This document shows positions 1-24,716 of a stretch of 51,177 nucleotides of DNA, piece by piece (the first letter of the stretch is position 1; every line of letters starts with the position of its first letter). The stretch lies in the IMG/VR virus record IMGVR_UViG_2579778634_000021. One strand, written 5' to 3'. The notes beneath the pieces were generated by a model. That model was not told the origin of the DNA and did no database searches. It worked only from the letters and a program-made list of their open reading frames with translations. The DNA is from a virus. Lineage: Duplodnaviria; Heunggongvirae; Uroviricota; Caudoviricetes. Made by a program: the position numbers and the translations under genes.

Positions 1-171
1 TCAATAAATCCCATCATTGCGATCAACCTCATCCTTAACCATTGATGCGAGCAGTTCTTCCAGTTTCTGCGCTGATAGCTTTACCTGGTGATCTTCAGCA
101 TCTTCCCGGGCTATTGTGGTTCGCGCAGTGGCTGATTTTGCTGACATCACCATAGGGGGCAGACGGACCAT
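1..171 (-). CDS. hypothetical protein, partial (runs off the left edge of the window)
   Basis: Open frame continuing past position 1 on the minus strand, with candidate starts at 171, 153 or 147. No recognisable family. Confidence 0.2.
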   Translation of the reverse strand: MVRLPPMVMSAKSATARTTIAREDAEDHQVKLSAQKLEELLASMVKDEVDRNDGIY

Positions 172-234
172 TGAACCATGGCCTCCGGAACAAATAAGGG
201 CAAAAATAACAACCACTATCGAAAGCTCACAAAC

Positions 235-450
235 TAACCGCAGCACGTTCCTGCATACGACGTGTCTGCGGCATAATCCCAATGATTACTCCCTGACAGG
301 ATTTGCAGGCCACTCAATATCAGGTGCAGTTGATGTATCAACACGATTCAACAATACCCGATATTTATTCCATGCCTCCAGCAACGATCTTTCTTCCTCC
401 GTTGCGATTTCCAGATCTACAGCATCCTGCAGTGGCGCAATATACTCACT
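235..450. repeat. direct repeat copy A (about 215 bp, tfa 3' end plus downstream hairpin)
   Basis: Roughly 88% identical by eye to 1286..1495. Includes the inverted repeat ccgcagcacg...cgtg.ctgcgg. Confidence 0.7.
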
Positions 451-555
451 GAATTCCTGGATGTAGAACTGTGTGGTGACGGTCTTCCAGCCATTCGGCT
501 CCTGCTGTATCGAAGCATACCAGGCTATTTCAATATCGCTATGCTGCGGCAGCAT
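286..555 (-). CDS. Tfa-like C-terminal domain protein (truncated paralog or remnant)
   Basis: 89-aa ORF whose C-terminal 55 residues ([27 protein letters not shown]) closely match the C-terminus of the full Tfa at 1335..1919. The N-terminal part is unrelated. Confidence 0.5.
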
Positions 556-611
556 TTAACCCCTTGTAATTCATCGCCATAATTGATTTAATTCACAAAT
601 AAAACTATAAC

Positions 612-1280
612 ATGGTGAAATCAATGAAAAAAAACACAGATGATGGGGCTAAAATTTACACACCACTTACCCTAAAGCTTTATGACTGGTGGGTTTTGGG
701 AGTATCAAATCGGCTTGCATGGGGATGTCCTACAAAGGAACACCTTCTTCCACACTTTCTGGAACATGTAGGTAACAACCATCTGGATATTGGTGTTGGA
801 ACTGGGTTTTACCTTACTCACGTACCTGAGAGTAGTCTGATATCTTTAATGGATTTGAACGAAGCTAGCCTGAACGCGGCATCTACAAGGGCTGGGGAAT
901 CAAAAATTAAACATAAAATTAGCCATGATGTTTTTGAACCTTATCCCGCGGCGTTACATGGTCAATTTGATTCCATTTCCATGTTTTACCTTCTTCACTG
1001 CCTGCCTGGAAATATATCTACAAAAAGCTGTGTAATACGCAATGCGGCGCAGGCCTTAACTGACGATGGAACTCTATACGGAGCCACAATTCTTGGCGAT
1101 GGAGTTGTGCACAATAGCTTCGGTCAAAAACTGATGCGCATTTACAATCAGAAAGGCATCTTTTCAAACACAAAAGATTCCGAAGAAGGCTTAACACATA
1201 TACTCTCAGAGCATTTCGAGAATGTTAAAACCAAGGTTCAAGGTACTGTAGTAATGTTTTCCGCTTCAGGGAAAAAATAG
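612..1280 (+). CDS. class I SAM-dependent methyltransferase (cargo gene)
   Basis: 222-aa ORF with the Rossmann motif I DIGVGTGFY and an acidic post-I motif LMDLNE. AT-rich compared with its flanks and the only plus-strand gene in a minus-strand tail operon. Confidence 0.65.
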   Translation: MVKSMKKNTDDGAKIYTPLTLKLYDWWVLGVSNRLAWGCPTKEHLLPHFLEHVGNNHLDIGVGTGFYLTHVPESSLISLMDLNEASLNAASTRAGESKIKHKISHDVFEPYPAALHGQFDSISMFYLLHCLPGNISTKSCVIRNAAQALTDDGTLYGATILGDGVVHNSFGQKLMRIYNQKGIFSNTKDSEEGLTHILSEHFENVKTKVQGTVVMFSASGKK

Positions 1281-1285
1281 CATCC

Positions 1286-1495
1286 AACCGCAGCACGTTC
1301 TTGCTTAAGACGTGCTGCGGCATAATCCCAATGATTACTCCCTGACAGGGTTCGTAGGCCACTCAATATCAGGTGCAGTTGATGTATCAACACGGTTCAG
1401 CAACACCCGATACTTTTTCCAGGCTTCCAGCAACGAGATTTCTTCCTCTGTTGCAATTTCCAGATCTGCAGCATCCTGAAGCGGCGCAATATGCT
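1286..1495. repeat. direct repeat copy B (tfa 3' end plus terminator hairpin)
   Basis: Partner of 235..450. Contains the 11-bp-stem hairpin ccgcagcacgt/acgtgctgcgg immediately after the tfa stop. Confidence 0.7.
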
Positions 1496-1919
1496 CGCTG
1501 GCTACCTGCATCAGGCTGTTTTTTGTTTCTTCCGCCTCCCGGATCCGGAACAGTTTTTCTGCTTCCGTATCCTTCACCCAGGCTGTGCCGTTCCACTTCT
1601 GAAACTCCCCTTCCGGCGATAACCAGGTAACATTTTCCGGTAACGGACCGAGTTCAGAAATAAATAACTCGTCCCCTGACGCTACGTCATAAACCGTTTT
1701 ACCCCGATGGTCTTCAACGAGATGCCACGATGCCTCATCACTGTTGAAAACAGCCACAAAGCCAGCAGGAATATCTGGTGGTGCAATATCGGTACTGTTT
1801 GCTGGCAGACCTGTATGAGGCGGAATATATGCGTCACCTTCACCAATAAATTCATTAGTTCCGGCCAGCAGATTATAAATTTTTATGGTCCGTGCTTGTT
1901 CACTCATTCTGAATGCCAT
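1335..1919 (-). CDS. tfa: tail fibre assembly protein Tfa
   Basis: 194-aa ORF directly downstream of the side tail fibre gene, with the start overlapping the stf stop. Conserved Tfa C-terminal domain. Confidence 0.85.
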
Positions 1920-4900
1920 TATGCAAGCCTCACAATATAGTTAAATGCGATGTTTTTGACGGTGTTTTCCGCGTTACCCGCAGCGTTAACGGTGATGGTG
2001 TGTCCATGTGAACCAATCGCAACGGAGTGCGTATGCGCACCAATACCTACAGTATGTGCATGTGCGCCAGAACTTGCTGCAGTACCAGACAGCGAGTGGG
2101 TATGAGCACCTGCTGACTGTGTCTGAATACGTTGATAATACGATCTATAGGAAGAAGTCTCCGGCCTTACTTGATACTGTGAATCCTGGACATAAGTGAA
2201 CCCACCGCCATCATAAAATGCTAACGCAGAACCGCCGCCTCCTGGCCAACGAATACCATTACCATGAGTATGATCACCGGCAGACCCCGTAGAGCCACTC
2301 AGACTGTGCGTATGCGCCCCGGTGTTATTCGTGGATTTAGTGCCGTAATCAAACGACGATGTGGTTTTCGTCCCCAAATCCGTACTGGATGCGCTGGCGC
2401 TGTGGGTGTGCGATTTAATGCCGTCCTGTTCCTGAGACAATACGGCTCGATCACTGGCGGGCTTGCCCTTAATCGTCCAGCCACGCATATCAGGAATAAC
2501 GCCTGACGGATAAGCCACTGCAAGTTTCGGGTAAGCAGATTTGTCAAAAGTCTGCCCCTGCATCAGGGCATAACCAGACGGAACGGTATCTGATGGCCAC
2601 GGGATTGGTGCACCGACTGGGTAGCTTTCTGGTGGAAGATTTTTCGAGGTATAAACTTCTGCCCAGTCTTCCTCAAAACCATAACCGTCTCTTGAAGAAC
2701 GGTAGAACAGACCACCATTTCTGTAATGCGCCTTCATCTGCAGGGTCCGGCAACTTCCGACTCCGGTATAGAAGTTAACCAGAATATAGCTGTCGCCAGA
2801 GCGGGTGACATTGTAAGCGCCTGATTCGGCATTCCAGGGAACGGCTCCATCCGAATCCGCATAAGCCCCCGTCGAACGTCGGGCAAATGCACCAATATTT
2901 TCCGGCGTGAGGTTAATATCCGCCGAGCCATCAAACTTAACACCGTTAATTTTTGGGTCTGCCGCAAGTTTCGTCGCGGTATCGGCGTTCCCCTTCAGTG
3001 CCCCGGTGATCCCATCAGTAACAGACAACGGACCTGAAATAGTCCCTCCAGTTGTTGACAGCGCTCCAATATCTGATGGTGTAGGTTTCTGATGTGAGCT
3101 ATACATCGTATAAACAACACCATCGGTAACGCTGGAAGGCTTACTCGCTGAATATGTTAGCGAGGTATAAATAGAAACTGACGCATTTGTAGTACAATCC
3201 CAATGGATATTTACACTCGTCGCATAATTGCCAATCTCAACGTAAATATCATATATATCGCCGGATGTGTTGATCCAGGCGAAATTCGTTAATCCGACGG
3301 CTGTACGCTTCCACAAAGCTCCGGTAATCCCTTTGGGGTTTCCATTGCCTGCTCGTAGAACCAGTTCAGATATACCTGCCTGTTGAGGTGCCCCCACGTT
3401 AAATCCAGCGCCACCAATCAATGCGATGTAAACGATGGAACTCGCTTGTGGCATGGTAACCGTTGCCAGTTTGAACCACCCTGCCCCGCCAGAGAAAGAG
3501 ATCGTTACTGAATTTAAAGTGCCAATATCTTTCGGTGTTAATGTTATATCCGCAGTCAGTGCTTTCCCGTTAACTTTTCGGTTAGATGGTACCCTGCCAT
3601 TCGCATTGTCATTCGCTGCTTTAACTGCCTTCGGTGTCGCGGCAAGCGTTTCAGATGTGCTGTTGGTTGCACTGCTGAGCTGTACTATCCCCTTTTTCGT
3701 CGTGCTCGCATCCTCAAGCGCCACGGCGGATGCAATATCCTCTGCCCGTTTTGCCGCTGTCTCGGCGCGCGTTGCCGCGGATTCCGCCGTACTTTTGCTC
3801 TGAGCTGCCGCCGTCGCACTGCCAGCTGCCTCTGTCGCCTTCGTGGATGCCGTCGTGGCGCTGCCCTTTGCTGCTGACGCCTGTCTGGTCGCCTCATCTT
3901 TTGAAGCAGACGCAGATGATGCCGATGACGCCGCTGAACTGGCTGACGATGCGGCTGCCGCCTTAGAGGAAGCAGCATTGTCTGCTGAAGTCTTTGCATT
4001 TGTTTCAGAGGTTTTTGCTGCAGAAGCAGACCTCGCTGCTGCAGTGGCTTGCTCAGTGGCTTTGCCAGCCTTCGTTGTGGCTGTTGAAGCGGATGATGCG
4101 GCGCTTTCTGCCGATTTTCCGGCGGCGGTGGCACTGGCTGAGGCCTGCCCGGCACTTGTTGACGCGGCACTGGCAGATAATGCAGCCGCTGTTTTTGAAC
4201 CTGCCGCAGTTGAGGCGCTCTGTCCCGCTGCTGTTTCAGAAGACTTAGCGTTCGTCTCGGACGTTTTTGCCGCCTTCGCGGAATTTCCTGCCGCCGTTGC
4301 CGAGGAAGCTGCACTACTGGCACTTGATGATGCATTCGTTTCTGAAGATTTCGCTGCCTCTTTTGAGGCCGCCGCACCCCGTGCCGAGGTGGCAGCTTCT
4401 GACGCCTTCGTGGTCGCTGTGGATGCAGAAGTGGCTGCCGATTTTTGTGATGCTGCGGCATTCGTTTCTGACGTTTTCGCGGCACTGGCGCTGGTAGCTG
4501 CCGCGCTTTTTGATGACTCTGCAGCAGCAGCACTTTTTGATGCCTCAGAGGCTTTTGCTGATGCCGTTCCTGCGCTGGAAAAAGCCTCCTGAGCCGACGT
4601 CGCGGCCTGTCCGGCTGACGTGCTGGCTGCACGTGCTGAGCCTGCAGCATCAGTCGCATGGGTTGCCGCCTCACGGGCTGATGTGCTGGCATCGCCGGCT
4701 GACTTCTTCGCGGCTGCCGTGTTCTGTGCCACTGCGGACGCGTTACGCGCCACCTCTTCCACCATCTGCTCAAAGCGGCGCAGTGCCTCCGGTCGGACAT
4801 CATCCTCCGTCATGGCACCGAGAAAATCATTCAGCGTACCTGGTCTGGAACCTTCATAGACGGTAATGGTCCCGGCATGTGAAGGCGGAAAACCTTCAAC

Positions 4901-5089
4901 CAGCAGGGTGACGCTGTACTGACCATGCTCAACATCCATGCTGTAACGTCCGGCTTCATCCGGATTTTCAGAGGCCACCGTGTTCACCACCACCGTGCTG
5001 CTGGTTCGTCTGGCCTTCAGCACAATGGTGCAGTTCTGTACTGGTTTTCCTGTGCCATCTTTAAGCACGCCAGAAATTTTTACTGTCAT
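1919..5089 (-). CDS. stf: side tail fibre protein Stf
   Basis: 1056-aa ORF with a lambda Stf-like N-terminus ([17 protein letters not shown]...), a long Ala/Ser/Thr-rich low-complexity shaft, and a C-terminal region with repeated GAHTHS/HxH motifs. Confidence 0.9.
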
Positions 5090-5240: not shown

Positions 5241-5840
5241 TCAGAAACGGTATCCGATACCAACAATAAATGCATCCGTTCGCCAGTCGCCACTACCGGA
5301 ACCTTCATAAGCAAGGTCAATGGTCACGGATTCGGTCGGGTTAAACTGCACGCCAGCCCCCCACGCCAGAGACGTGTTGCTGTGGCGACCGTCATCACTT
5401 CCGGTCAGCACATCGTGCGTTTTCCCCTTGTTGTCAGTTACGCGGAGATAATCCCCGGAGAAAGTCGACACACGGCTGTAAGCCACACCCGCCATCGCAT
5501 ACGCGCTGAACCATTCATTCACGCGTACAGACGGCCCCGCCATCACGCTGAACCAGCGGTTACGCACGGAATCTTCATGCCAGCGGGTATCGCTGTAGCG
5601 CGTTTTTTGCTCATCCTCAGCATTGGCATAACTGAAGGACGTAATCAGCCCCAGCGCGTCCGTAAACTCATAACGGTATTTCACGTTAATCCCGTTCAGA
5701 TCATCACTACCGGGAACGTTCGTCGAGGCATGGAGATACCCCGCGCTCAGCGTGGACTGATGTTCTGCTGCACTCGCTGGCGTAGCAGCGGCGACCTGCC
5801 AGACTACTGCGGACAAAATAACAGCACATAATTTACGCAT
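5241..5840 (-). CDS. lom: Lom/Ail family outer membrane protein
   Basis: 199-aa ORF with a signal peptide and a beta-barrel ending in the aromatic residues GIGYRF. Sits between J and stf as in lambda. Confidence 0.9.
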   Translation of the reverse strand: MRKLCAVILSAVVWQVAAATPASAAEHQSTLSAGYLHASTNVPGSDDLNGINVKYRYEFTDALGLITSFSYANAEDEQKTRYSDTRWHEDSVRNRWFSVMAGPSVRVNEWFSAYAMAGVAYSRVSTFSGDYLRVTDNKGKTHDVLTGSDDGRHSNTSLAWGAGVQFNPTESVTIDLAYEGSGSGDWRTDAFIVGIGYRF

Positions 5841-5907: not shown

Positions 5908-8900
5908 TCAGCTAATCGTGATGCCTGCAGTGGCTTTCTTCATCACCACAACCAGCAAATCGCTGATACTTGCTGTGGGATACCAGTTATTTACCAGCCA
6001 TGCTGACACCGAAAACTCCAGTGTCATGTGACCGTGACCGGCAGGCATATCAATAACACCACTGTAAATCAGCGTATTATCCAGCGCGGTACGGTTATAA
6101 ATTTCAGCACCGTTTTTCCGCACTATCAGACGGCATGAGGAGTAAATATCAGTATGCTCTTTCTCATGTTTAGCGCCGCTGAATGCCACCGCCGGAATAA
6201 CAATCTGCCGGTCAAACGGCTGATCGTCATAAACCCTGACGGTAATGGTTCCTGATGGCCACCGCTCCGGTGCACGGGAGTCCCGGGGGAAAGCTTTGCC
6301 CACTGTTTTAACGAGATCGCCTTCAATCTGGTTCGCGGACAATTTTCCCAGAACCCGACAGTTCTCGTTAATCGTGACGTTGTTGAGCGTCCCGGAGTTC
6401 GCATTCACGTTACCGCTGATATCGGCATTTTTCGCCGTCAGCCGCCCGTCCGGTGTCAGGGAAAATGCCGGAGGATTACCGCCGCTGGTAATGGTGGGAG
6501 CCGTCAGATATTTCAGGAACACTTCATTCATAAATATCTGATCGCCCTGACCAACAAACATCGGCTTTGTGTTGCCATTCGCAGGATTAATCATCGCAAT
6601 CCTGTCTGCCGCCAGCAGCACCTGACTCTGCATTCCTGCTGGCGTATTCTCAATACCGGCACCGATACCCGCAATATAAAGGCGTCCGTCCTGCATCTGC
6701 TGCAGTTTCACGGCCCACATGCTGTTCAGGTTATTATTTGTATCAACCTGAACTTTCTGTATCTGCTGGATTGCCGCACTCTGATTTTCCAGTTTTTTAT
6801 TGACGGTCTGCGTGATTTCATTGCTGACATTCGTAATGGACGTCCTGATTTCAGCCAGGTCCGGCGCAAGCTGACCGTTATCAATCTGCGTCCACAGCTC
6901 CTGGGCCAGATGTGTTTTCCCGATTTCTCCTTTGAAAAAATCCAGGTAACCTTCCGCATCATCGCTCGCCCGACCGACAGCCTCCACGAATGCCGATTTG
7001 CCAACAGTATTCACACTGCGGATATAAAAATAATAATCATGGCCCGGTTTGATATTGATACTGGCAGCTATCCAGTACAGCGCCGAGCCAAGATAGCGGG
7101 CTGCGGTTTCAACCTGCCTGATATCCGCAATCCGCTTTTCCGAGAACCAGAACTCAAACTGTACCGTCGGGTCATAAACGGCAAGATGTGGCGTTGCGGT
7201 TATCTGAAAATAGCCCGGCGTCAGCTCAATCCGCGACGGTGCTGCCGGTGCGGCAATCCGGAAGGTGGTGGTGGCAGGTTCACCCTGCTGGCCATAGCTG
7301 TTTATCGCCCGCACCGTCAGGGTGTATTCCCCGAGCGGCAGGCCGCTGAAACGGTGCTCCGTGTCTGCGGTGATGGCGGTGGTCACCAGTCTGGCATCCG
7401 TTCCCTTACCACTGGTCAGGCGCAGACTGAAGCGCACACCCTTCACCACCCGCGGCGTGTCCCATTTCGCCTGCGCCAGATACTGGCCGTCAGCTGCGCT
7501 CACCTCCACCGTCAGGTGCTGCACTGCCGGTGGGATGACGCTGTTCAGGGAACCTGACTGCGGCTCAAAGCGGGCACCGTTATCCACGATGGCTTCTTTT
7601 TCCGGTACGTGCTGCACCGCCGTGATGGCAAAGGTGCCGTCCGTGTTTTCCCGGATGGAGACACAGCGGAACAGGCGACGGCGCAGTGACGGCAGGGAGA
7701 GTCCCCACACCCCGTATGTCTCCACACCATCAGGCAGGGTACTGACCTGTATCCGGTCCGGCGCGGGGTGTGCGGTGATGTCCACACTCACCGGCTTACC
7801 GCTGCCGTTAATCAGGTTCACCGTCGATGCACCTGTCCCCGGAAGTGTCACTTCACGGTCCAGCGTCAGGGTGCGGGTGGCAGCATCAATGGACAGGACA
7901 CGTCCGCCGGTCAGGGTCCCGGCATAGTCGTTATCACAGATTTCAATGATGTCACCGGGTGTGTGCCGCAGCCCCTGAGACCCGAGTGTGAAATCCACCG
8001 TCTGCGTTTCCAGCAGTTCGGTCTTTATCACCCACAGTCCGGCACGGTGGGCCTGACCGCGGCTGGTACAGCCGAACGCGTCCATCTTCAGCAGGTTGCG
8101 TCCGTAGCGCAGTATGGCTTCCGGGTCTTCCACCAGTTCCGTGGAGGTCTGCCAGCCGTTCTGCGGGTCGGTGTAATTCACCTCCACCGCCGTGTGCCGG
8201 TCCTTCAGGGCACTGAAGCTGTAGCGGAACCCCACGCCGTTATCATCCACCACCACATCGCTGTTCGTGTACGGCCACACCACATCCGACGGGCGGTCCT
8301 GAACGAACGTCAGCGTCTGGCCGTTCCATACCGGCATACAGCGCATCGCCGAGCAGAAATCACTGAGAACGTCCCACGCCTTACGCTGTTGTGCCAGGTA
8401 CGCATTAAAGGTCATCCGCGGCTCGGTCCCCCCGAAACCATCCGGGACCGTCTGGTCGCAGTACTGCCCGATGGCATACAGCGCCCACTTGTCCACATCC
8501 GCCGCCCCCAGACGTTTTCCCATGCCGTAGCGCGGGTGAGTCAGCATGTCCCACAGGCACCAGGCCGGGTTGTTGCTGTATGCCGGTTTCAGACTGCCGT
8601 CCCAGATACCACTGTACGTGCGTTTTTCCGGGTCATAGTTTGACGGCACCTGGATGATGCGACCGCGGATATGGTAGTTCACCGTCATCTGCTGGCCGCC
8701 GAACTGCTCCGCATCCACCTGCAGCCCCACAATGGCCGTGTTCGGGTAGCACTGTTTCACATCGATGATTTCGGTGTATGACGACCACAGCGTCTTATTC
8801 TGCAGCTGGTCCGTGGTGCTGTCCGCCGTCTCCCTGACCATCCGGATGTTAAAGGGCCGGGGAGGCAGATTATCCAGAATCACCGAGGCCAGGAACTGTG

Positions 8901-9381
8901 AGGTGGTCTTGCCGTTAATGGTGACGTCCTTTTCCGTCACCCAGCGGCCATTACGCTGTAACTGAATCAGAATCCGGACAGAGGAAGGATTACGGTCGCC
9001 CTTTGACGTGGTCTGCACCAGTGACTGCACCCCGAAGGTAACCCGCAGGCGGTCAATGTTCGCGGACGTAATGGTACGCGTCACCGGTTTTGCCTTCGTC
9101 ACTTCCACGCCTGGTCCGGTTTCAGCTCCGGAGGACTCAAAGCCTTCCGGTGGTGTCTGCTCCTGCTCCCCGGCGCGCCAGACCGCCGTCACACCGTGTA
9201 TCACGGGATTGCCGTCCGTGTCCGTCAGTGGGGTTTTGTTCACCAGAATACTCTGCAGTCCCTTCACCGGACCTTCTATCGGTCCCTCACCAATCGCATC
9301 AATCACACTCATCATCTGCGTGGATTTGAGATTATCCTTCGCCTCACGAGGCGTGTGTGCCTTACCGCCACCTTTTCCCAT
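5908..9381 (-). CDS. J: host specificity / central tail fibre protein J
   Basis: 1157-aa ORF. N-terminus and overall length match lambda J. Confidence 0.95.
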
Positions 9382-22804: not shown

Positions 22805-24716
22805 TCACTCCTCCGGACAGCTTCGCTGCCAGTTCTTTAAGGGTTGGCCGGGTCGTCTCTTCTTCCCGGGATTTTGCCAGTACAGCCAGATCAAGCTGCC
22901 AGCGTTGCACGGACACACGTAATGCCGCGTAGGCATACACCAGGCAGTCCAGCGCTTCGTTACGCCGCTTTTTGTTATCCCACAGCAGACGCATCTTTCC
23001 TTTTTCCCACTTCTCCACAAGCTCTTCCGCGACCAGTTGCTGCGCCTCTGTCTGCGAAAAAATCTCCGGATCATCAGGAAAACGGATGGCATACGACGTG
23101 GCTTCATCCGCAGGCGTGGGCTCGGCTTTCATACGGGCATAGAGAATTTCTTTTGCGGTGTCCGTCCCCACTTCACACAGATAAACGCCCCGCTGATTGC
23201 GGGTTTTTGGCATGGTGATCACCGGCTTGCCATAAACAGATGCACCTTTTACCGGCAGCACCCGGAAAACACCGTGTTTTTTTGACCTCTGATAGACAAT
23301 TTCGCCATCGATCCCCCCGGTGTCCCAGCAGACACGGGAAATGGTCATTTCGGTTCCGTCTGCATGGCGGTATTTTTTGTTGATCGCCACATCCACACGT
23401 AACAGCGTCTCTTCCTCATCGGGACGCCCCATAATGATGATTTTATCCACCAGAAAGGCTTCCTCTCCCGGAGCCCATCCCCAGACATACATCTCAAAAC
23501 GGTTTCGCTGCGAGTCAATGCCCGCCGTCAGATAAACCACCCGGGAAGGCACCGCAGCCGTGTAACGCACAACCTTATCCATCAGCACCTGGTGATCGAG
23601 TTTTTCACCCACGGCCTCTTCCCAGGTCTCGCCCAGCGTGGTGTTCACAAAGGTTTTCAGCCCGTTGGGATCTTTCAGTGCATCCAGCCAGTCATAGACA
23701 ATCTGTACCCAGGTGGTGAACGGACTGTACGCCGTCCAGATATGGAATGTGATGGAGCGCGGCGGCGGAATTTCATTATCCGCGGCGCTGAAAAACGTCA
23801 GGCCGTCACGGGTCCACATGCCCGTGTTTTCACAGATCCACCGCCCGTTGCTCTGGTCAAGCTCAGACTGATGGATCACGCAGCCATGATGTTCACAGAG
23901 GTAGAAAACGCTTTCGGGGCTGTCCTTCTCCCATTTAAGGCCAAAAGGCGTGGACTCATCGCCAAATTTCAGATACTGCGCCTCCCCACAGTGCGGGCAG
24001 GGCACATAAAAACGCATGAAATGCGCCGACTCGTTGGCCGCTTTTTCGATCTGGCAGGAGCCTTTTATTTTAGGCGTCGAGCCGCGAATGGATTTTGGCC
24101 ATACCGAGCCCTCAATACGCTTATCCCCCAGCAGGGTTGGCGAGCCCTCTTTTTCGACATCCGGCTCGAACGAGGAAAGTTCGTCATAGCAGACCACGTC
24201 CACGGATTTTTCACGGTAGTTTTTGGCGGCAGCGCCGCCCAGGCACCAGAAGCCCACACCCGATGAAAAGCGTTTCAGCGTGATGGTATTATCACGATGT
24301 TTACGTCCCAGCCAGGGAGAAAGTTTTTTCAGGCAGGGAACATCGCGAATCGTCGCCTCCACGTGAGACTTCATAAAATCTTCAGCGGCAGAATCCGTGG
24401 GCTGAAAAAGCAGACTGTTTCGGGATTTATGCTCAATAAAATACCCGGCGACTCCCAGCAACATCTTTGTATAGCCAACACGGGCAGATTTAATCAGATT
24501 AACAGTCCGGATCTGATCATTCCCCATGCTGTTCATGATGGCGATCTGGAACGGCAGCGTTTTCCATTCTCCCTCACCATATGAAGATTCTTTAGGCAGA
24601 TAATAATTTTGATCAGCCCATTCAACTGGCGTCACCGGCAATGCCCTTATCAGGGGCTGTAATGCTGTTGTGACAGCACTCATCATATTATTCAGTTGTT
24701 GCTCTGATATATTCAT
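22788..24716 (-). CDS. A: terminase large subunit A
   Basis: Start taken at MNISEQQ. Strong lambda gpA-like similarity along the whole length. Confidence 0.95.
   Translation of the reverse strand: MNISEQQLNNMMSAVTTALQPLIRALPVTPVEWADQNYYLPKESSYGEGEWKTLPFQIAIMNSMGNDQIRTVNLIKSARVGYTKMLLGVAGYFIEHKSRNSLLFQPTDSAAEDFMKSHVEATIRDVPCLKKLSPWLGRKHRDNTITLKRFSSGVGFWCLGGAAAKNYREKSVDVVCYDELSSFEPDVEKEGSPTLLGDKRIEGSVWPKSIRGSTPKIKGSCQIEKAANESAHFMRFYVPCPHCGEAQYLKFGDESTPFGLKWEKDSPESVFYLCEHHGCVIHQSELDQSNGRWICENTGMWTRDGLTFFSAADNEIPPPRSITFHIWTAYSPFTTWVQIVYDWLDALKDPNGLKTFVNTTLGETWEEAVGEKLDHQVLMDKVVRYTAAVPSRVVYLTAGIDSQRNRFEMYVWGWAPGEEAFLVDKIIIMGRPDEEETLLRVDVAINKKYRHADGTEMTISRVCWDTGGIDGEIVYQRSKKHGVFRVLPVKGASVYGKPVITMPKTRNQRGVYLCEVGTDTAKEILYARMKAEPTPADEATSYAIRFPDDPEIFSQTEAQQLVAEELVEKWEKGKMRLLWDNKKRRNEALDCLVYAYAALRVSVQRWQLDLAVLAKSREEETTRPTLKELAAKLSGGVNGYSR

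Follow-up and report, generated by a model that had tools for sequence, protein, structure and literature searches.

The ybcY methyltransferase cassette of lambda-like Escherichia coli prophages and its probable exchange through conserved tfa ends

The stretch of viral DNA analysed here (IMG/VR record IMGVR_UViG_2579778634_000021; 51,177 nt, hereafter the window, to which all coordinates refer) begins, on the minus strand, with the distal end of a lambda-like prophage. At this end, a gene for a predicted S-adenosylmethionine (SAM)-dependent methyltransferase is bracketed by two directly repeated copies of the 3′ end of the tail-fibre assembly gene tfa. Very probably, this arrangement represents the ybcY moron cassette of lambda-like Escherichia coli prophages, spread and lost by recombination within the conserved tfa 3′ end. 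The finding as such is already known, the module being that of ybcY and tfaX of strain K-12 and occurring in most E. coli. The present analysis adds the exact bounds of the cargo, the chimeric make-up of an 89-amino-acid (aa) open reading frame (ORF), the alleles of the empty site, a likely start at position 624 for the methyltransferase and the distribution of the family in bacterial chromosomes. The features of the cassette are as follows.

236-462, direct repeat copy A: 59 tfa codons, stop codon and downstream hairpin
238-271, minus strand, hairpin A: terminator-like on the strand of the tail operon; then GTTAGTTTGT
286-555, minus strand, predicted chimeric 89-aa ORF of the tfaX type (phrog_2341): phrog_3893 stub plus Tfa C-terminal domain
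about 463-1285, cargo segment unique between the repeats: phrog_3893-type 5′ stub, divergent promoter spacer and methyltransferase gene
556-623, plus strand, candidate promoter and 5′ untranslated region of the methyltransferase gene: hexamer pairs and GGTGA
624-1280, plus strand, predicted YbcY-family class I SAM-dependent methyltransferase, 218 aa (annotated form 612-1280, 222 aa)
1286-1511, direct repeat copy B: 3′ end of the intact tfa gene plus hairpin
1288-1320, hairpin B: between the converging tfa and methyltransferase genes
1335-1919, minus strand, intact tfa, 194 aa (Caudo_TAP, E = 2e-44)

A methyltransferase gene between two tfa 3′ ends

The first-pass annotation of this DNA had noted a plus-strand, AT-rich methyltransferase gene among the minus-strand tail genes. 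This description was borne out by the ORF itself (612-1280, 222 aa, with the motif HLDIGVGTGF), by Pfam and by a GC content of 41.1%, as compared to 51.4% for the window, 48% for tfa and 53.5% for the side tail fibre gene, stf. The direct repeats, put at about 215 bp, were likewise found, although each copy is closer to 226 bp and comprises the 59 terminal codons of tfa with their stop codon, followed by some 49 bp that contain a stable hairpin. The two copies align in two blocks separated by a 1-bp indel: 266-462 is 88% identical to 1315-1511 and 236-264 is 90% identical to 1286-1314. A match of this length is far above chance, and the repeated sequence is also present at the 3′ end of the lambda tfa gene, to which copy A is 85% identical. 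Synonymous divergence (dS) between copies A and B is about 0.48, which indicates that two tfa alleles were brought together and that no fresh duplication took place. The repeated piece encodes the C-terminal domain of Tfa. As summarized from work on the Mu protein, the N-terminal domain of Tfa is variable and the C-terminal domain conserved (PMC9608196); hence the repeat provides homology between otherwise unrelated tail modules.

The hairpin of copy A has a folding energy of -22.6 kcal/mol on the tfa strand (z -2.8) and forms a terminator-like site. Hairpin B is stable on both strands (-27.2 kcal/mol, z -5.1 on the minus strand; -25.1 kcal/mol, z -4.9 on the plus strand) and may act as a two-way transcription stop for the converging tfa and methyltransferase genes. 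The same element follows tfa in lambda, where a second copy of about 59 bp lies between ea47 and ea31. The hairpin stretch of the window (214-272) is 90% identical to lambda 24161-24219 (locus L002, 894-952), and one more copy was seen in E. coli MB98. The 22 bp to the left of hairpin A resemble the second lambda copy, between ea47 and ea31, and not the one adjacent to tfa. The hairpin following tfa thus looks like a dispersed element marking module boundaries.

The layout is old, fixed and very common

Of 5426 complete E. coli genomes, 3832 contain the methyltransferase gene at 95% nucleotide identity or more, some of them in as many as four copies, and 2736 have the full layout, counted where at least 80% of window 200-1560 was covered. 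The exact 222-aa protein falls in a cluster of 6589 sequences, and most copies are intact. The same order of tfa, methyltransferase and tfa-like ORF recurs in inducible phages, one of which, PhiR26_1, carries the annotation "putative uncharacterized protein YbcY"; in phages 2G7b and ev243 the layout accompanies a different tail-fibre module. The first-pass annotation had named two outcomes that would speak against its reading, namely that the gene proves to be conserved and syntenic in related phages or that the repeats are not shared tfa sequence. The first was in part what we found, the gene being conserved and syntenic in many related phages; the repeats did turn out to be shared tfa sequence.

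Window 309-1773 matches prophage DLP12 of strain K-12 at 96.8% nucleotide identity. In this prophage, the region between appY and nohD holds a tfa′ pseudogene, a frameshifted methyltransferase gene and a tfaD fragment, corresponding to tfaX, ybcY and tfaD, respectively. The methyltransferase gene of the window is 99.4% identical to ybcY at the nucleotide level and has the same flanking context. The two loci share a tfa gene, a converging methyltransferase gene and a divergent tfa-like ORF, in the same order and orientation and with the same promoter hexamers. They differ in that ybcY is frameshifted, tfaX contains an internal stop and tfaD is truncated, whereas no such damage affects the methyltransferase gene, tfa or any of the tail module in the window; in addition, DLP12 resides at argU and the prophage of the window at ompW. 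The methyltransferase and the 89-aa ORF both belong to PHROG families (phrog_2132 and phrog_2341) that have no assigned function. The K-12 locus, the inducible phages, the count among complete genomes and the PHROG families together identify the cassette as a known, annotated and very common module.

Empty sites and recombination within the repeats

In lambda, the hairpin that follows tfa runs straight into the b region, with no methyltransferase gene in between. An artificial cassette-free junction, made by joining window 1-235 to 1286-1700, was used as a query and was matched in one piece by 20 E. coli genomes at 92-98% identity. Three of these 20 loci were fetched (EFF60, PigCaeca_2 and Evo1), and all three were found to lie at the same ompW site and to contain the same tfa end and the same fossil of a DUF4376 gene, without the methyltransferase. 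EFF60 has the full J-lom-stf-tfa order; Evo1 has different genes upstream of tfa. The comparison with prophages lacking the insert, which had been proposed as a check, thus yielded empty sites at ompW, in which the cargo (about 463-1285) is absent. It also upheld the designation of the gene as accessory cargo. Absence from between the same neighbours in lambda and in the 20 empty-junction genomes, and a base composition differing from that of the window, are properties expected of a moron. That the region following the tail-fibre genes is a hotspot for such cargo, as the first-pass annotation had also stated, is recognised for lambda-like prophages (PMC8112680).

At the sites that distinguish copies A and B, the single repeat of EFF60 has the bases of copy A up to position 265 and those of copy B from position 301 on. 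By this pattern, the empty site looks like the product expected of a crossover between the two repeats. The single repeats of PigCaeca_2 and Evo1 are more mosaic than that of EFF60. Comparison of the window with other loci located the breakpoints of homology at 308/309, 331 and 526 on one side of the cargo and at 1320, 1352 and 1448-1455 on the other; every one of them except 526 falls within the repeats. Across contexts, identity is 98.8-99.8% for the methyltransferase gene but 85-97% for the repeats on its flanks.

Since the C-terminal domain of Tfa is conserved among unrelated tail-fibre modules, the two repeats of about 226 bp amount to portable homology arms. Homologous recombination within them would bring the cassette into new prophages and would also delete it, a step that the empty sites and breakpoints illustrate in part. 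Recombination between tfa genes, as proposed in the first-pass annotation, therefore holds for the spread and loss of the cassette, with breakpoints in the repeats; its origin would have needed two illegitimate joins (see below). The locus can serve as a worked example of how the Tfa C-terminal domain and the hairpin form a stretch of homology that ends otherwise unrelated tail-fibre modules: whatever comes to lie between two such copies can be transferred among prophages, or lost, through ordinary homologous recombination.

The methyltransferase gene is conserved and has its own candidate promoter

The 222-aa ORF reported for the methyltransferase is present at 612-1280, but its first codon is probably not the one used. 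Unlike ATG 612, which orthologues do not conserve, M5 is invariant in the family alignment; translation thus probably starts at ATG 624 to give a 218-aa protein. Candidate promoters upstream consist of TTGATT (583-588) and TATAAC (606-611) with a 17-bp spacer, and of TTAACC (556-561) and CATAAT (578-583) with a 16-bp spacer; a GGTGA (614-618) precedes ATG 624. Consensus-like promoters are no commoner in 556-611 than in shuffled sequence. The 60 bp upstream of the gene, which include the candidate -35 and -10 hexamers and the GGTGA, are conserved with a chromosomal orthologue of Enterobacter. For K-12, the spacer between the divergent genes ybcY and tfaX has been listed as containing a constitutive RpoD promoter (TTGATT-17-TATAAC) and as marked by H-NS (PMC3946193). 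Window 583-611 is exactly the hexamer pair reported for ybcY. The gene is probably transcribed apart from the tail operon and partly silenced by H-NS.

The distribution of the family was surveyed by a scan of one genome per species, which returned 527 relatives, the best 80 of which were considered. All of these 80 are at least 50% identical to the window protein; they come from Enterobacterales, Pseudomonas, Xanthomonadales, Pasteurellaceae and Oxalobacteraceae. Chromosomal stand-alone relatives occur across Gammaproteobacteria at 50-68% identity. Those of Salmonella, Enterobacter and Yersinia (56-68%) are single genes in ordinary chromosomal neighbourhoods, and the Enterobacter orthologue has a similarly low GC content (39%, in a locus of 50% GC). 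Neither a nearby tfa gene nor a conserved neighbour was found for the orthologues in these three genera and 70 other species. Clustering of the ORFs around 72 orthologue loci from 28 genera gave no conserved partner gene; the second-largest cluster of neighbours consisted of shadow ORFs antisense to the methyltransferase gene in high-GC genomes. A tfa gene adjoins only copies at least 99% identical to that of the window: those of Escherichia and Shigella loci, and those of two short contigs from metagenome-assembled genomes labelled Bacillus and Planococcaceae, which are probably derived from E. coli.

The gene is not intact everywhere. It is frameshifted in K-12 and in strain ERL05-1306, and deleted in strain MB98. 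The latter, initially a candidate for an empty site, was rejected as such and is really a cassette from which the methyltransferase ORF has been deleted (locus L006, 3888-4842): window 583-1244, and with it almost the entire ORF, is missing, while the promoter spacer and the final 36 bp are still there. In strain SSGw1, the prophage at the DLP12 (argU) site is down to ompT, an intact 218-aa methyltransferase gene, a tfa fragment and an integrase fragment (locus L017, 4100-4756). Here, the methyltransferase has outlasted nearly all other phage genes.

The lesions in K-12, ERL05-1306 and MB98 are what one would expect if the methyltransferase were a neutral, decaying passenger that owes its abundance solely to hitch-hiking on tfa ends prone to recombination. 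Its AT-richness and H-NS mark would fit as well. The literature found on ybcY is limited to incidental mentions (a promoter list, a description of the ompT neighbourhood and one mutant assay), and in that assay the K-12 mutant was wild-type-like (PMC2408971). We nonetheless consider a neutral passenger unlikely. Most copies in the 6589-sequence cluster are intact, as is the copy in the SSGw1 stub, and single genomes hold up to four copies that are 98.8-99.8% identical. Comparison with the Enterobacter orthologue gives a ratio of nonsynonymous to synonymous substitution rates (omega) of about 0.12, with dS saturated, and 58 alignment columns are invariant across genera; both point to long-term purifying selection. 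The same ratio is uninformative among E. coli phage copies, which show only 1-8 differences.

The 89-aa ORF is a chimera

The ORF to the left of the methyltransferase gene had been taken for a tfa remnant. Its C-terminal part does derive from tfa: the Caudo_TAP domain is matched over the last 56 aa only (residues 31-86, profile positions 75-130), so that the ORF lacks the two-domain organization of Tfa. In contrast, the intact 194-aa Tfa covers profile positions 1-130 of 131 and shows the full two-domain organization. Residues 3-37 of the 89-aa ORF match phrog_3893, and residues 1-37 are 76% identical to an intact 80-aa phrog_3893 gene product of Citrobacter. Since residues 1-37 resemble phrog_3893 and residues from about 32 to 89 are Tfa, the ORF is a chimera and not a simple tfa remnant; as judged from these matches, it is an in-frame fusion of the 5′ stub of a phrog_3893-family gene to the C-terminal domain of Tfa. 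Over its full length, it matches phrog_2341, a family of 88 aa. Full-length phrog_3893 genes are found in several temperate phages, lambdoid and other, among them HK225, mEp390, HK140 and phages of Klebsiella and Erwinia, and lie at about 20-26 kb in those with standard coordinates.

The tfa-derived segments also match an RNA family. The Rfam family RF02111 (IS009, a putative E. coli small RNA) scored 223 bits at 1378-1576 and 112.5 bits at 329-532, both on the minus strand, against a gathering score of 117. The two matches lie within tfa-type coding sequence, on the coding strand. This suggests that the Rfam model describes the conserved 3′ coding region of tfa, as it appears to do, rather than a separate RNA. 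One study placed IS009 among the RNAs to be set aside because ribosome footprints were to be expected on them, for instance owing to a position within genes (PMC5331693).

These elements could in principle be the functional part of the cassette, either as a truncated Tfa that hampers tail-fibre assembly by rival phages or as an IS009 small RNA. The chimeric ORF is in frame, has a PHROG family of its own and retains the Tfa C-terminal domain, for which a role in trimerisation has been proposed (PMC9608196); IS009 matches are found in both repeats. Set against this are the state of the ORF elsewhere and the position of the RNA matches. The counterpart in K-12 is interrupted by an internal stop, that in phage 2G7b is split by indels, and the 3′ end of the ORF has been exchanged in other phages, with breakpoints at 308-331. 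The ORF is probably non-functional. With the IS009 matches confined to coding sequence and the family set aside in the footprint study, a functional chimera or repeat RNA is very improbable.

Enzyme family and likely substrate class

The window protein is predicted to be a class I SAM-dependent methyltransferase. It passed the Pfam gathering scores for Methyltransf_12 (37.5 bits, cut-off 30), Methyltransf_23, Methyltransf_25 and Methyltransf_11. Motif I (LDIGVGTG) occupies residues 58-65, and in the family alignment D59, G61, G63 and G65 are invariant and V62 nearly so. An AlphaFold2 model (pLDDT 90.5) has the seven-stranded beta-sheet with alternating helices that characterizes class I enzymes. 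The protein belongs to the YbcY family by its match to phrog_2132 over residues 1-218 of 218 (E = 4e-157).

Foldseek and profile searches placed phosphatidylethanolamine N-methyltransferase, juvenile hormone acid methyltransferase, UbiG, Coq5 and natural-product methyltransferases at the top. PmtA (8ys9), juvenile hormone acid methyltransferase (7ec0), UbiG and Coq5 share with YbcY the fold, a length of about 210 aa and an N-terminal helical cap, and differ from it in sequence, with only 15-21% identity and TM-scores of about 0.55-0.65. Searches of NCBIfam gave only sub-threshold matches: the equivalog models for PmtA and RquA scored 16-17 bits against cut-offs of 175-390, so that the protein does not qualify as PmtA by these models, nor is PmtA a clear best match among the folds. 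These fold and profile matches suggest that the target is most likely a small, probably hydrophobic metabolite or lipid in the lysogen, and a small-molecule, possibly lipid-type, methyltransferase is the most that can be said of YbcY. The profile and structure search called for in the first-pass annotation thus supplied a subfamily (phrog_2132) and a class of folds; its remark that the methylation target cannot be read from the sequence stands.

A DNA or RNA methyltransferase, acting in phage anti-restriction or epigenetic control, would be another conceivable role for such a gene. The 218 residues contain neither a DNA-methyltransferase motif IV, of the form (D/N/S)PP(Y/F/W) or PC(Q), nor a target-recognition domain. 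No DNA-methylase family was found in Pfam, in NCBIfam or among the top fold matches, and PADLOC gave no meaningful match that would assign the gene to a defence system. With the closest matches in sequence and fold being small-molecule and lipid enzymes, and with orthologues that stand alone without restriction partners, such a role is hardly to be expected.

We may speculate, with much reserve, that YbcY acts on a lipid or hydrophobic metabolite of the lysogen, such as a phospholipid head group, a quinone or an isoprenoid acid, a trait that prophages would have spread to about 70% of E. coli and that the frameshift masks in K-12. If true, this would provide a function for an orphan family conserved at 50% identity or more across Gammaproteobacteria. 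A well-conserved methyltransferase, present in most E. coli genomes and often in several copies, has escaped attention, in part because K-12 carries it as a pseudogene. Its substrate, which it would be useful to find, could be sought in natural isolates whose copies are intact.

Origin of the cargo

In Citrobacter, a relative 90% identical at the protein level is found in a locus free of tfa sequence, the match to window 469-1292 being 92% at the nucleotide level. There, the divergent neighbour of the methyltransferase gene is the intact 80-aa phrog_3893 gene. In this locus, from Citrobacter freundii (L102, 3307-4996), the methyltransferase gene sits between a UmuD-like gene plus the phrog_3893 gene on one side and a DinI gene on the other; it is the closest copy without tfa flanks. 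Resembling the accessory end of another prophage, the locus may preserve the ancestral context of the cargo. At the right junction of the window, ACCGCA is common to the Citrobacter-type and hairpin sequences; at the left junction, the parents share a short CCTG patch. Both ends of the cargo would fit illegitimate joining of the microhomology type.

We propose the following sequence of events. The cargo would have consisted of the low-GC methyltransferase gene with its own promoter and of the first 37 codons of its former divergent neighbour, the phrog_3893 gene. Two illegitimate joins of the microhomology type would have set this cargo between two different alleles of the tfa 3′ end and hairpin. 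One of them would have fused the small-gene stub in frame to the Tfa C-terminal domain, generating the 89-aa chimera of the tfaX type, and the other would have placed the stop codon of the methyltransferase gene 5 bp from a tfa hairpin that now lies between converging genes. The resulting unit would then have moved by homologous recombination as described above.

Several observations weigh against this account. The flanks of the empty-site prophages are only 94-97% identical to the window, so that gain and loss of the cassette are equally possible. The frameshifts in K-12 and ERL05-1306 and the deletion in MB98 show the gene to be dispensable. Hairpin B has no clean U-tract on its plus-strand side. 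The Citrobacter locus is itself in a mobile-element context, with UmuD-like and DinI genes. Finally, the microhomologies at the junctions are short (4-6 nt) and could be coincidental.

The first-pass annotation had implied a local or novel capture. The direct repeats flanking the gene and the empty-site relatives at ompW could suggest a recent capture in this very prophage by a fresh recombination that duplicated the tfa 3′ end, but this is scarcely credible given the identical layout in 2736 genomes, in DLP12 and in several phage genera, and repeats that differ by 10-12% (dS about 0.48), represent different alleles and are far too long for a target-site duplication. What is seen instead is an old, fixed tfa-methyltransferase-tfa′ unit, the same as tfaD-ybcY-tfaX. 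The length of the repeats likewise led us to reject a transposon with a target-site duplication.

Comparison with other prophage systems

The cassette resembles lambdoid morons, which are additional genes equipped with transcription signals of their own, as well as the lambda b region and the exchangeable effector loci of PPompW-type prophages, in being an extra gene absent from lambda, with atypical GC content, a candidate promoter and a hairpin, and also in its location at the prophage end just after stf-tfa. It differs in the nature of the cargo, a metabolic-type methyltransferase where other lambdoid morons carry a type III effector, an outer-membrane protein (lom, bor) or a toxin, and in being bracketed by long homologous tfa ends, which are not general among morons.

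With the invertible segments Mu G, P1 C and the e14/Rac Pin elements, the locus has in common two tfa-derived sequences beside one tail-fibre gene. Unlike in these systems, the copies are direct and not inverted, both an invertase gene and crossover sites are absent, and the second tfa copy is a 59-codon stub fused to an unrelated gene. An invertible host-range switch was considered and rejected, the repeats being direct and no invertase-sized ORF lying beside the segment.

Remaining features of the prophage end

The sequences on either side of the cassette are the following.

1-282, minus strand, DUF4376 pseudogene (RefSeq), a fossil of tail-fibre or tail-fibre-assembly type at the extreme end of the prophage, beside truncated ompW
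1919-5089, minus strand, stf, side tail fibre, 1056 aa (ORF list)
5241-5840, minus strand, lom
5908-9381, minus strand, J

In a PHROG profile search, the fossil at 1-282 matched phrog_7703 and phrog_1141 (tail fiber protein). A 100% identical locus in E. coli TUM14664 shows the DUF4376 pseudogene followed by an ompW fragment, the prophage being inserted in ompW beside yciE. The fossil is the third tail-fibre-related sequence of the locus, which suggests that tail-fibre modules have been repeatedly replaced, with stubs remaining. The intact tfa gene (1335-1919) is 94% identical to lambda tfa at the nucleotide level. In the TUM14664 locus, RefSeq names the stf counterpart "prophage tail fiber N-terminal domain-containing protein". 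The middle of stf (3700-4800) is a long, repetitive Ala/Ser/Thr-rich region of 58-66% GC, with several families of imperfect repeats of 17-33 nt and long shadow ORFs on both strands.

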